This document shows, in pieces, positions 27,001 through 30,000 of a stretch of DNA of 64,000 nucleotides. Each line of letters opens with the position of its first letter. The first letter of the stretch is position 1. The stretch is from Candidatus Marinacidobacterales bacterium (GTDB lineage: Bacteria > Acidobacteriota > Vicinamibacteria > Marinacidobacterales > DATDRI01), in the NCBI GenBank assembly GCA_965219415.1, contig CBDCNP010000001.1, positions 220,251 through 284,250 of the forward strand. The letters are read 5' to 3'. The position numbers are program-made.

Positions 27001-30000
27001 TACAGATTCCGTTCGAGAGCCGCTCCGGGAGCATGGGGACGGCGCTCTCCGGAAAGTAGACGGACGTCCCGCGTTCGAAGGCTTCTCGATCTAGCGGGCT
27101 CTTCTCGCCGACGTAGTGAGCCACGTCGGCGATGTGGACTCCCAAGAGAAAGTTGCCGTTTTCGAGGAGCTCGACTTGCACCGCGTCGTCGAAGTCACGG
27201 GCCGTCTCTCCATCGATGGTCACGATGTCTTCGCTCCGGAAATCGGCACGGTTCGCGATCGCTTGTTGAGGCACCTCGGTTGGAATGCTCTCTGCTTCTT
27301 GGAGCACGTCCTCCGAAAACATGTTCGGAATCTGGTACTTTGCGACGATGACCCGCACGTCGACACCCGGTTCATCGACTTGCCCCAAAACCTCGGTAAC
27401 TTTTCCTAAGGGAGCGCGAAAGGGACTCGGATAACGAACGATCTCGACGACGACCATCTCACCCGGTCGAGCTCCTGCCTCTTCTCCGTGTGTCACGAAC
27501 ACTTCGTAGAGAAAGTTGGGATCGAACGGCACGACGCGCGCACCCGCGTGGTCTTTTTCGAACCGGCCCACCATTTGAGTCGACCCGCGTTCGAGCACTT
27601 CGACGATGCGACCCTCCGGCTTCCCGAAACGGCCCTGGCGCTCGATATGAACCAACACCCGATCGCCGTGGAGCGCATCGGCGAGCGCCGCACCCGCAAC
27701 ATAGATGTCGGGCTCGGGCTTTCCCTTCTTGCCGGTCTTGCCGGTCTTTCCGGTCTTTCCTGGCGGGCCCGGCGGGCGGTCCGGCCGCACGAAACCGAAG
27801 CCTCCCGGCTCGCAGGAGAGTCGGCCCGCCACCAGGTCCATCTTCTCGGGCAGGCCGATTCGATCGGAGCGCGTGCGCGCCAGCTTTCCCTCCGCGACCA
27901 TCTCGCCCAAAATCCGCTTGGCGGCGAGGCGAGCATCTCCCTTGGCGCGAAGCATCTTGAGAATGTCTTTTTCCGTGGTAGGACGCCCGAGTCGAATCAA
28001 GATCTCCTGGACCCGGGTTCGGATCTGGCTATCTGTCTTTTCTGTGAGAGGGGGCACCGGCGGCAATCTTAGCGCCGTTCCCAATCGAAATCGACTCGTT
28101 GACAGGACCCGGCGGCGCTCCTATCATGGCGTTCGATTGAGGCCTTCCCAGTGCCGAAGTGGCGGAACGGCAGACGCGCTGCGTTCAGGGCGCAGTTCTC
28201 TTCGGGGAGTGGGGGTTCGAATCCCCCCTTCGGCACCAAAAAATAGTCCCTCCATTCCAACCGTGTTCCTCGGTCCCTGCGGGAATAGCTGACAATCCTT
28301 CGATTGCCGCCAAAACCACTTGACCCTGTACCTGGGTCAAAGGTTTACAATGCGGGTAGGAGCAATCGAATGGAAAACGACTCGTTTCTCATCGGCGAAC
28401 TAGCCCAGCGGGCCAACGTCAATCGCGAGACCTTCCGTTACTATGAACGGCGGGGACTCCTCAAACCGAGCCGCCGCACCCCCTCCGGCTACCGCGTCTA
28501 CCGTCCGGAAGCCGAAGAACGGCTAGGTTTCATCAGACGTGCCCAAGCTTTCGGATTCACACTCGATGAGATCTCAGTGCTACTCGGACTGCGGCCCGAC
28601 AATCCTCGGAGCTGTCGTCGCGTCTTGGGGATCCTCGACCAGAAAGTAGAAGAGCTCGCCCAACAAGATTACCGAAATGAAGCGCTTCCATCGGCAAATG
28701 TCCAGCTATCGCGACCATTGCGCTCAGACGATTGACAAGGGTTCGAGATGCCCGGTGATTGCAGACGTATCCAACGTGAAGATCTGAGGAGATATCATGT
28801 CCAAGTGGACCGGTTTCGGAGCCGTTGGCGCAAGCCTCGGGGTAGCTCTGAGCTGGTTGTGCTGCCTCCCTTTCGCGGCTGCATTGGGGGCGGGAGTCGC
28901 GGCGGCAGGAGCCGCGCTCACACCACTTCAGCCCTTCATGGCTCTTGCCAGCGTTTCGCTGCTCGCCATTGCTTTCGTTCAAACACTAAGGGCGCGGGGG
29001 TGCGAGGATGGCGAGACCTGCAGCGCCCTATCGAAGCCGCGTCGTTGGCTCTTTCTAGCGGCAGTCACGGTAGCGACGATCCTCCTGATCACGGTGCCGT
29101 ACTGGAGCGCCCATCTCATTTACTGGACCCTGTGACCGCCTGGAGGTGCACGCCATGAATCGACGGATTCTAGTAGGAAGCTTAGCTGTGGCAACGCTCG
29201 CGGTTCTTTCTGGCGTCGCAGTTCTTCGGAGCTCAGGCGGCAAATCCAGTTGGAAGGAGCTCGGCTCCGTTAAAGAGCTTAGAGAGCAGTTCAACCAAGA
29301 CGAGGGTTCGATTCGGATCGTTCTGCTGTTGTCTCCGACGTGACCGGTTTGTGTCGCGGGGGCCCGGTGGGTCCAATCCAATATTCTCGAGGCTAATCCG
29401 GACGCCAACGTCAAGGTCTATGCGGTCTCCTTTCGCATGCTCGCGAGCGACCGCATCGCCAAATGGATGGTCGAGCCTGACAATCTTCTCTCGGATCCGC
29501 GCACCTTGCATTACTGGGACGAGGAAAAACTCGCTGGACGATACTACGAGGAGCGCGTGACTCAACTTGGCGATCCCGGCAACGGACGCATCGAATGGGA
29601 TGCCTATTTTCTCTATTGTCCCGATGCCACATGGGGAGAGGAACCACCGGAACACATCAGCTGGGGTCGAACCATCGTAGACTCCCGCGAACGGCTGCTC
29701 CGAGACTTCACCGCTCTGCTGCACTCCCCTGGAACGACCGAGACCCGTCGCCAAGAATGAAGCCTGATGGATTGCTGTCAGCGTGAAGGCGAATCAGTCG
29801 ACCGCACCTGCCCTCGATGCGGCTCAGTGGGGGCGATCCGTCCAGCTGGTAACGGTCAACAGCCTTCTAACGGCTCGCGCCCTGGAAAGACTCACTGTGA
29901 AGGAGCACCGGTTCTGCGCGACGCCGGACTGCGAGGTCGTCTACTTCTCCGAAGTGACACTCTTTGGGCGCGAAGACGTTCGAGTACCCGTGTTTCAGAA

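Follow-up and report, generated by a model that had tools for sequence, protein, structure and literature searches.

A gene on a contig of a Candidatus Marinacidobacterales bacterium carries an in-frame TGA within a thioredoxin-like motif and stands between genes of a MerR-type metal cassette. This raises the question whether the TGA encodes selenocysteine (Sec) and, if so, what such a protein does beside metal genes. We followed the gene computationally through its frame, its Sec decoding signals, its fold, its export signal, its neighbourhood and its fusions. The window, i.e. the whole stretch of DNA analysed, comprises 64,000 nucleotides, and all positions refer to it.

Reading frame and in-frame TGA

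The gene is described by the following features:

29155..29760, + strand, selenoprotein gene, 201 codons plus TGA stop, with a single in-frame TGA
29341..29343, + strand, UGA predicted to be read as Sec, residue U63 (frame translation, alignment with relatives)
29142..29146, + strand, Shine-Dalgarno-like GGAGG, 8 nt 5' of the ATG at 29155, read from the sequence and kept in the related locus L046

An earlier note on this DNA had reported a TGA within a UxxC motif, and it is indeed found at 29341-29343 inside the 201-codon frame 29155-29760, in the motif LLLSPT-U-PVC (SPT-U63-P-V-C66). GTG 29188, the start proposed in that note, shares this frame, yet ATG 29155 appears to be the likelier start because the N-terminus MNRRILVG is conserved in L046. 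The TGA is unchanged in contigs of four public runs from four studies, one or two of which may be the window's own source. As a prediction from sequence, it is confirmed that the gene encodes a selenoprotein with Sec at the thioredoxin active-site position.

Relatives of the selenoprotein

Matches to the selenoprotein occur in 67 of 400 other genomes of the phylum. An in-frame TGA had been noted before in 36 of 50 foreign rows from 200 genomes; this predominance persists in the 400 genomes, where a hand count gives 68 of 95 foreign rows with one in-frame TGA and 27 with none, at least five of the latter being fragments that do not reach residue 63. Leaving out five TGA rows from unpublished genomes (G049, G024, G152) changes the count to 63 of 90. 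In each of the 22 TGA-bearing loci that were cut out, the TGA falls on U63. UGA also aligns with Cys in homologues, as is asked of a selenoprotein: Cys stands at position 63 in six of the 29 aligned loci, which agrees with the register of U and Cys described earlier, and nine further Cys forms were found. Among loci from several phyla 54 have U, nine have C and in three the motif was not found, a count biased by a search that used a seven-sequence alignment with two peptide patterns. The family was thought to be common in Acidobacteriota. The matches within the phylum agree with this, however the family is not confined to it but spans at least eight phyla, with occurrences in Chloroflexota, Acidimicrobiia, Nitrospinae, Hydrogenedentota and other groups, and a representative library yields 972 clusters at E<=0.001.

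In the alignment with 24 relatives F46, R54, P61, U/C63 and C66 are invariant, and W92 and W148-D149 nearly so, which gives the family signature SPT-[U/C]-x-x-C ... W-D. U/C63 and C66 are the only conserved soft ligands, and no conserved His is present in the 25 aligned sequences.

Coverage of the family in databases

Databases hold the relatives in pieces because gene callers split at UGA: the post-TGA part alone is found as 'hypothetical proteins' of 110-145 aa, much as the earlier note had it, and two fragments of 62 aa end at the TGA. The protein has no Pfam match at E<=0.05 and no meaningful NCBIfam match, the sole row being a spurious one to IF-2 beta (E 0.016). The lack of a model, already claimed before, extends to three natural Cys-form relatives, which have no Pfam match at E<=0.01 and no NCBIfam match. 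In the protein atlas the natural Cys-form relative P0005 leads only to clusters that are either unnamed or called 'thioredoxin family' and that have no Pfam in common.

None of the Pfam, NCBIfam or TIGR models listed in the 2026 catalogue of 119 prokaryotic selenoprotein families (PMC13188914, Table 1) matches, entries defined by CDD only being left out of this comparison. To this extent the family is new to the catalogue as well as to Pfam (including 38.1) and NCBIfam 20.0. The literature search found no thioredoxin-fold mer-operon protein and no such motif described in the parts of PMC8261052, PMC10433974, PMC12013277 and 10.1101/2022.07.06.499078 that it covered; supplementary tables, which might list the family, lay outside it.

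Decoding of the UGA

21957..23921, - strand, selB, Sec-specific elongation factor (TIGR00475, 376 bits against a cut-off of 242.25)
29360..29374, + strand, SECIS-like hairpin GGGCCC-GGU-GGGUCC, 6 bp with a GGU loop, starting 16 nt past the UGA

The genome contains selA, selB, selD and tRNA-Sec, the set expected where bacterial selenoproteins are made. The selB gene, said before to lie about 5 kb away, is 5.2 kb from the selenoprotein gene; tRNA-Sec (69.7 bits), selA and selD, the last with a TGA of its own, are encoded elsewhere. A thioredoxin-like gene beside selB (23879-24745) was ruled out as a selenoprotein, being a Cys form (CPYC).

A bSECIS element is a stem-loop shortly 3' of the UGA with a G in its apical loop, and the hairpin at 29360-29374 with its GGU loop agrees with this rule. 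In a comparative alignment of 54 sequences it is paired in 99.1% of cells, while only 26-61% are paired when the hairpin partner is slid by 1-3 columns as a control. Pair 21:33 is CG in 31 of these sequences, UA in nine, GC in six, UG in five, and AU, GU and another combination in one each, and the covariation falls on two synonymous codon positions. An earlier count, 7 of 11 pairs with compensatory changes, was not recovered; instead there is a 6-bp hairpin with one covarying pair, and a second subgroup of the family has its own 8-bp hairpin, in which three of the eight pairs covary. The 23 Sec forms fold more stably than the six Cys forms, with -11.7 vs -7.9 kcal/mol (one-sided p 0.045, with relatives that are not independent). 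Folding the single post-UGA sequence gives a result no better than shuffles (z 0.69); only the comparative hairpin test is informative.

A true stop at the TGA, which would mean that no selenoprotein is made and that the locus is either a pair of small ORFs or a dead gene, is extremely improbable. The split 62-aa and 110-145-aa pieces in the databases and the signs of decay in the cassette of this species would suit such a stop, but the TGA occupies one and the same codon in all 22 loci cut out in the phylum and in the 54 loci from several phyla, with Cys at this position in the remaining loci. The covariation of the hairpin, the full Sec machinery and the upstream fused domains of L074 and L063, which are free of any other stop, likewise argue for Sec.

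Fold and location of the protein

The AlphaFold model (pLDDT 84.7, pTM 0.79) matches thioredoxin folds at 9-18% identity and shows the beta-alpha-beta core with the CxxC position at the N-terminus of helix 1 that is characteristic of thioredoxins. The fold assigned earlier is upheld, and we are confident of it as far as the model goes, with TlpA/ResA/DsbE as the nearest proteins. The nearest structures in VIA are all thiol-disulfide oxidoreductases. The best PDB sequence match of the family profile is a TlpA-like 'putative thioredoxin' (E 0.0065), but an hhalign comparison with one TlpA-like protein reaches only 48% probability, over 41 columns that surround the CxxC. W148-D149, which precede the strand 150-154, appear in the alignment to stand where TlpA-like proteins have their cis-proline (x-Pro), whose loop faces the CxxC in thioredoxin folds.

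The best Foldseek matches are GPx8 and GPx7 (E 3.4e-5 to 1e-4), which would suit a peroxidase. The GPx tetrad includes Trp-Asn, which the near-invariant W148-D149 resembles, and W92 is nearly invariant too. A thiol peroxidase of the GPx or peroxiredoxin type, in which Sec63 would be the peroxidatic and Cys66 the resolving residue, would protect the envelope during metal stress. We nevertheless consider this improbable, as the TM-scores of the Foldseek matches are only 0.38-0.49, the VIA ranking places TlpA-like chains above GPx, there is no match to PF00255 or PF00578, and fusions to MerT and HMA domains would be left unexplained. Also the motif is UxxC and not UxxT or TxxU (PMC13188914, Table 1).

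29155..29241, + strand, N-terminal hydrophobic segment, residues 1-29, MNRRILVGSLAVATLAVLSGVAVLRSSGG

This segment is a predicted signal peptide or membrane anchor that would place the domain outside the cytoplasm. By a rough Kyte-Doolittle criterion a hydrophobic 15-mer precedes the domain in 53 of 61 relatives, and several relatives have a lipobox-like L-x-x-C.

Neighbouring genes and state of the cassette

28153..28238, + strand, tRNA-Leu(CAG), directly upstream of the cassette
28370..28787, + strand, MerR-family regulator gene (profile matches), frameshifted in this assembly
28797..29135, + strand, MerT-like membrane protein of 112 aa (NF033556 and PF02411 below cut-offs)
29767..30205, + strand, CopZ-N-terminal-type gene (zf_CopZ, 2Fe-2S/Zn-type; NF047645) with MDCC N-terminus, frameshifted
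30654..31178, + strand, IS256-family transposase fragment (NF033543, E 1.5e-8, 34 bits against a cut-off of 150), downstream of the cassette

The ORF upstream of the selenoprotein gene had been left as unknown. Its sequence features mark it as a divergent transporter of the MerT type in which both cysteine pairs are present, LCCLP (Cys-Cys) in TM1 and a C-x5-C loop. Its matches stay below the cut-offs (NF033556 MerTP: E 2.1e-9, 37 bits, cut-off 180; PF02411: E 1.9e-4, 21.9 bits, cut-off 32.9), while MerT orthologues beside relatives of the selenoprotein exceed the Pfam cut-off with 39.4, 48 and 67.7 bits.

MerR and zf_CopZ are present as neighbours, as described earlier, but in this assembly both genes carry a frameshift. 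In merR, an extra base near 28665 puts the C-terminal Cys-x9-Cys loop out of frame. The CopZ-type gene has one extra base in a G run at 29829, its downstream frame reaching 109.6 bits with NF047645 (cut-off 100) and its N-terminus lying in another frame; in L046 the gene is intact. Both extra bases are absent from the runs X6 and X10. Compared with this assembly, the selenoprotein gene lacks 99 nt in two other runs. The best MerA match of this genome stays below the cut-off (377.6 against 454.45), and its only HMA domain lies inside an 836-aa open frame. With two genes frameshifted, the 99 nt absent from those runs and no merA found, the cassette of this species may be in decay. A genomic island, suggested by the tRNA-Leu and the IS fragment, was rejected, as neither a flanking direct repeat of the tRNA end nor a GC shift was found.

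Link to mer operons

The window itself has only MerR and the sub-threshold MerT-like gene as mer components, and its context had been called not conserved after a check of one relative. Many relatives do share it, up to fusions with MerT and HMA domains. A merT-type gene lies directly before the family member (X) in the window and in L046, L053/L017, L018, L054/L019, L055, L022 and L095. L054 has the order CsoR-MerT-X-MerC-MerA (MerA 539 bits, cut-off 454), Chloroflexota loci have ArsR-?-MerA-MerB-X (L079 with 529.7 and L084 with 497.1 bits), and MerB is above its cut-off in L084, L076 and L072. Fusions comprise MerT::X (L033, L063), MerT::HMA::X (L041), X::HMA (L022), HMA::X (L038), X::DF (L030) and, in L074, DF::MerT::HMA::X in one frame that is stop-free apart from the Sec TGA. 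No separate MerP/HMA gene was found in the nine mapped operons (L046, L053, L054, L055, L079, L084, L072, L076, L077). In real mer operons with MerT, MerC, MerA or MerB, relatives of the selenoprotein occupy the slot that MerP normally holds.

Placement with merT, merA or merB was found for part of the family only. Roughly a quarter to half of the loci show mer-operon placement or a fusion to MerT, HMA or DF. In a local search 15 of 66 loci have MerT, MerA, MerB or MerC at a distance of up to about 5 kb, and three more have MerR only; about two thirds of loci have no mer gene nearby, and in 43 other loci that were checked the neighbours are housekeeping genes of various kinds. As the two locus sets share genomes (e.g. 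L019/L054 and L017/L053), these counts are not independent. 'MerA' matches from a local phmmer search in L104, L047 and L098 were discarded, since they are other flavoprotein disulfide reductases.

Possible metal capture or thiol reduction

The role in metal or redox stress proposed earlier keeps its metal-related context and can be narrowed to transport of mercury-type thiophilic metals. We give about even chances to the idea, drawn from sequence and context, that an extracytoplasmic Sec-x-x-Cys site captures soft metals of the Hg(II) type and passes them to MerT. The UGA at 29341 would be decoded as Sec by SelA, SelB, SelD and tRNA-Sec, guided by the hairpin at 29360-29374, and the protein would be exported and membrane-tethered with Sec63-x-x-Cys66 between strand 1 and helix 1, facing the periplasm. 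The selenol/thiol pair is predicted to give two-coordinate binding of Hg(II) or of another soft metal like it, from where the metal would move by ligand exchange to the Cys-Cys of the first helix in the adjacent MerT-like transporter, a task that falls to MerP where the mer operon is of the classical type. In the cytoplasm the metal would be accepted by the Cys-Cys CopZ-N-type protein in this cassette and by NmerA/MerA in relatives. Binding and hand-off are both predicted steps. As Hg is bound more tightly by Sec than by Cys, moving it from Se-Hg-S to S-Hg-S would be an uphill step, which speaks against the idea.

Besides the mer operons and fusions, metal carriage is favoured by U/C63 and C66 as the only conserved soft ligands and by the apparent W-D at the cis-proline position. 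Counting against it are the majority of loci without mer genes, the oxidoreductases as nearest structures, the below-cut-off MerT-like protein of the window, the lack of a MerA over the cut-off, the single HMA domain of the genome and the signs of decay in the cassette.

TlpA keeps Sco and CoxB reduced. An extracytoplasmic TlpA/ResA-like thiol-disulfide reductase could likewise keep the cysteine pairs of MerT and MerP-type domains, and of other substrates at loci without mer genes, reduced and metal-competent, with no carriage of metal. This main alternative is possible but rather unlikely. The protein atlas, which puts Redoxin/TlpA clusters at 0.87-0.88, speaks for it together with the TlpA-like top PDB match of the profile, the lack of mer genes at most loci, and the fusion to HMA domains, which is to be expected for an enzyme and its substrate. 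Also, redox catalysis is the main use of Sec (PMC13188914, section 7). On the other hand, the nearby ORFs scanned include no CcdA/DsbD-type gene, the alignment apparently puts W-D at the cis-proline position, Redoxin, AhpC-TSA and Thioredoxin_8 are not matched, and the gene fills the MerP slot where the operon lacks any MerP that could be reduced.

For the capture of metal by the selenoprotein a wider proposal can be made, which we regard as tentative and on the doubtful side. In MerP-less mer operons of several phyla the selenoprotein would receive Hg(II) in the periplasm and supply it to MerT, and in genomes without MerA, as here, selenoprotein, MerT and Cys-Cys 2Fe-2S-type CopZ-N would form a self-contained MerR-regulated soft-metal module.

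If the mer link is functional, the best-studied metal-resistance operon gains a new accessory component and a concrete, testable case of Se-Hg chemistry within a detoxification pathway; if the protein does carry the metal, selenium would be used directly to catch mercury. At present genome annotation misses the family because gene callers cut at the UGA and no model covers it; with a model of the family, annotation pipelines could call the genes whole.

Comparison with known systems

The selenoprotein shares with MerP (HMA fold, TIGR02052) the slot directly after merT, the export, a soft-ligand pair three residues apart (CxxC in MerP, UxxC here) and the fusion to MerT, comparable to the known MerTP fusions (NF033556). 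They differ in fold, MerP having a ferredoxin-like HMA fold and the selenoprotein a thioredoxin fold, and in size, the mature part comprising about 70 residues in MerP and about 170 in the selenoprotein, most family members of which contain Sec. The selenoprotein lacks the GMxCxxC of MerP/HMA proteins and matches neither PF00403 nor TIGR02052. As HMA-domain fusions occur, a MerP-type HMA domain and the selenoprotein family can coexist.

From TlpA/ResA/CcmG/DsbE (cd02966) the selenoprotein differs in matching none of their Pfam models (PF08534, PF00578, PF13905), in the low hhalign probability, in its apparent W-D in place of the cis-proline and in that no CcdA/DsbD partner was seen among the nearby ORFs scanned. 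Glutathione peroxidases have a tetrad of U/C, Gln, Trp and Asn, whereas the selenoprotein has W-D, no family-wide Gln and no match to PF00255. Sco, which is exported and anchored in the membrane, has a thioredoxin fold and uses its cysteine pair to bind a metal and deliver it. Sco/SenC is therefore a precedent for a metal-delivering exported thioredoxin fold; it has CxxxC and a conserved His, in contrast to UxxC and no conserved His in the 25 sequences of the selenoprotein family, and no Sco chain is among the best 50 VIA rows.

The selenoprotein matches no model of the known heavy-metal selenoproteins MerT (C/SxxU), UxxU HMA protein (NF041115), CopZ-type CU (NF045877), SaoT and DF (NF049942). 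SaoT, found in anaerobes, is described as a thioredoxin-like protein of cytosolic type with 85 residues (10.1101/2022.07.06.499078). All of these are likewise Sec variants of thiol-based metal-trafficking proteins, and in some genomes DF, MerT and HMA domains are fused to the selenoprotein family itself.

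The selenoprotein gene and its cassette

A single TGA (29341-29343) interrupts an otherwise open frame at 29146-29760 of the forward strand. We prefer ATG 29155 as gene start to the GTG at 29188 chosen in the earlier note, because a GGAGG motif lies 8 nt upstream, a hydrophobic N-terminus (MNRRILVGSLAVATLAVLSGVAVL) is gained and the N-terminus is conserved from the same Met in the closest relative (L046, 82% identity). The neighbourhood is organized as follows:

28153-28238, tRNA-Leu, upstream of the cassette
28370-28787, MerR-family regulator gene, frameshifted by an extra base near 28665
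28797-29135, MerT-like membrane protein of 112 residues
29155-29760, forward strand, selenoprotein gene, 201 residues, U63 within LLLSPT-U-PVC
29360-29374, forward strand, hairpin of 6 bp with a GGN loop, 3' of the UGA
29767-30205, CopZ-N-terminal-type gene (NF047645), frameshifted by an extra G at 29829
30654-31178, IS256-family transposase fragment, downstream of the cassette

The membrane protein, previously regarded as an unknown ORF, is MerT-like: it matches MerTP (NF033556, E 2e-9) and MerT (PF02411, E 2e-4), both below cut-off, and has both MerT hallmarks, a Cys-Cys pair (LCCLP) in helix 1 plus a C-x5-C loop. Its orthologues beside the relatives exceed the Pfam cut-off. A genomic island is not shown, as the tRNA-Leu and the IS256 fragment flank the cassette but neither an att-like repeat nor a GC shift was found around it.

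Selenocysteine insertion

The genome encodes the full Sec machinery, selA, selB (inside the window, 376 bits against an NCBIfam cut-off of 242), selD, which carries a TGA of its own, and tRNA-Sec (69.7 bits). Adjoining selB, 23879-24745 encodes a DsbG/Rcas_1661-like thioredoxin-type lipoprotein, which scores 120 bits with NF041057 (cut-off 190). Sec forms of that family exist elsewhere; this member was ruled out as a selenoprotein since it is a Cys form (CPYC).

The family was matched in 67 of 400 other genomes of the phylum. By hand count one in-frame TGA is present in 68 of 95 rows (63 of 90 when five TGA rows of three unpublished genomes, G049, G024 and G152, are set aside) and none in 27, at least five of which are fragments that do not extend to residue 63. 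From 29 extracted foreign loci 28 were used, leaving out one from an unpublished genome (L035); the TGA is in register with U63 in all 22 TGA-bearing loci, and the other six have Cys at that site. A scan of species-representative genomes added 66 loci (54 U, 9 C, three in which no motif was found), a ratio biased by the search patterns. In contigs from four public sequencing runs of four studies the TGA is identical, one or two of these runs possibly being the window's own source. In one database relative (P0011) Trp occupies the Sec site (SPTWPVC), most likely because a gene caller using another code translated the TGA as Trp.

The 6-bp hairpin is paired in 99.1% of cells over 54 distinct sequences; sliding the partner by one to three columns lowers this to 26-61%. 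Its sole variable pair (CG 31, UA 9, GC 6, UG 5, AU 1, GU 1, other 1) links the third base of codon 69 (Gly) to that of codon 73 (Val), and protein constraint cannot explain covariation between two such synonymous sites. Our analysis did not reproduce the compensatory changes that the earlier note counted in 7 of 11 pairs. A second subgroup has a different hairpin of 8 bp, five bases closer to the UGA, with both-sided changes in three of eight pairs. The stretch folds more stably in 23 Sec forms than in six Cys forms (-11.7 versus -7.9 kcal/mol, p 0.045), a weak result since the relatives are not independent. The SECIS of the family is well supported.

A widespread family without a model

This is a real, widespread and unmodelled Sec/Cys thioredoxin-fold family. 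Pfam gives no match at E<=0.05 and NCBIfam no meaningful one, for this protein and for natural Cys-form relatives alike; database relatives are fragments starting after the TGA and labelled "hypothetical protein". A representative library contains 972 clusters at E<=0.001 (328 at 1e-10), with two 62-residue pieces that terminate at the TGA. Members occur in Acidobacteriota, Chloroflexota, Acidimicrobiia, Nitrospinae, Neomarinimicrobiota, Hydrogenedentota, Krumholzibacteriia and Dormiibacterota.

Sequence kinship to known thioredoxin-type proteins is remote: a search of PDB with the family profile gives a best match at E 0.0065, and in a comparison with a neighbouring Redoxin protein hhalign reaches a probability of 48% across 41 columns. 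F46, R54, P61, U/C63 and C66 are invariant in the family alignment, and S60, T62, G69, W92, D99, D114, R116, W121, W148, D149 and W160 nearly so. By register, W148-D149 would take the place of the TlpA-like cis-proline. A hydrophobic segment precedes the domain in 53 of 61 relatives, by which its location is predicted to be extracytoplasmic; several have lipobox-like motifs.

Mercury-type neighbours of the relatives

In the phylum sample (28 loci, about 1.5 kb flanks) and in the 66 further loci (5 kb flanks, local phmmer with NCBIfam check), which share genomes so that counts overlap, a physical link of the family to mercury-type transport is recurrent.

Gene orders in relatives (X, the family; ::, fusion in one protein; -, adjacent genes)
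L019: CsoR-MerT-X-MerC-MerA
L022: MerT-X::HMA-zf_CopZ
L024: BlaI-BlaR-X-MerT-?-MerB
L033: MerR-MerT::X-?-flavoprotein
L041: MerR-MerT::HMA::X
L038: HMA::X-zf_CopZ-CsoR
L017, L018: MerR-MerT-like-X
L027, L030, L045: MerR nearby
L030, 1390-2364: X::DF
L063, 4458-5600: MerT::X with TGA
L074, 3960-5465: DF::MerT::HMA::X in one frame, the Sec TGA being the sole internal stop

MerT, MerA, MerB or MerC lie near 15 of the 66 loci, and MerR alone near three more. True MerA is found in L054 (539 bits), L079 (529.7) and L084 (497.1; cut-off 454), and true MerB in L084, L076 and L072; three phmmer "MerA" matches were dropped as other flavoproteins. DF (NF049942), a family whose function is unknown, is also listed among selenoproteins. 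Varied housekeeping contexts surround 43 loci without mer-type neighbours (for example alanine racemase with alpha/beta hydrolase in Pyrinomonadaceae, delta-aminolevulinic acid dehydratase (ALAD), CDF transporters). In three Acidobacteriaceae loci (L108-L110) Cys forms directly follow ALAD, an enzyme sensitive to thiophilic metals; this adjacency may be coincidence.

The cassette in this organism

Relative to L046, there is one extra base in merR and another in the CopZ-type gene. The one in merR removes the C-terminal Cys-x9-Cys loop, which L046 keeps; the extra G in the CopZ-type gene sits in a G run, and the N-terminus MDCC...CPRCG falls in the other frame. Contigs of two runs (X1, X2) agree with the window, including the extra merR base. 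In X6 and X10, runs that come from other studies, both extra bases are absent, and the CopZ-type gene is intact there and in L046; these contigs join 29401 to 29501, an in-frame loss of 99 nt (29402-29500, 33 codons) that takes the core/second strand region of the selenoprotein and is flanked by short ATCCG-like repeats. No MerA above cut-off was found in the genome, and its one HMA domain lies within an 836-aa open frame. The family-level inference therefore rests on the relatives, and in this species the cassette may be decaying.

Proposed role and comparison with known systems

The most economical reading, which we favour, is that the exported U/CxxC site would help to relay Hg(II) from thiol to thiol into the cell. 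Specifically, it would capture Hg(II) and then pass the metal on as MerP does, to which we give an even chance. This is favoured because X occupies MerP's slot behind merT in operons without MerP, is fused with MerT and HMA domains in several lineages, and has only two conserved soft ligands; a separate MerP/HMA gene is absent from nine mapped operons. The main rival, a TlpA-like reductase keeping Mer thiols reduced, is less likely: the nearest structures are all such enzymes, redox catalysis is the usual use of Sec and most loci have no mer genes nearby, but no CcdA/DsbD was found among the neighbours scanned and the cis-proline is apparently replaced. A GPx-like peroxidase, to which the top Foldseek matches and the W-D pair point, would leave the fusions unexplained and is improbable.

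Among the 119 prokaryotic selenoprotein families catalogued in 2026 (PMC13188914), no entry of Table 1 has a Pfam, NCBIfam or TIGR model that matches the selenoprotein. In the passages covered, deep-Sep (PMC12013277) names the DF family fused to X and not X itself; its supplements might list more. A survey of mer genes (PMC8261052) lists MerP/T/C/E/F/G and, in the passages covered, no thioredoxin-fold component, to which its supplements might add. As far as the available text of the Haft preprint (10.1101/2022.07.06.499078) describes them, its MerT-family selenoproteins and the 85-residue SaoT are families different from the Hg(II)-relay candidate described here.
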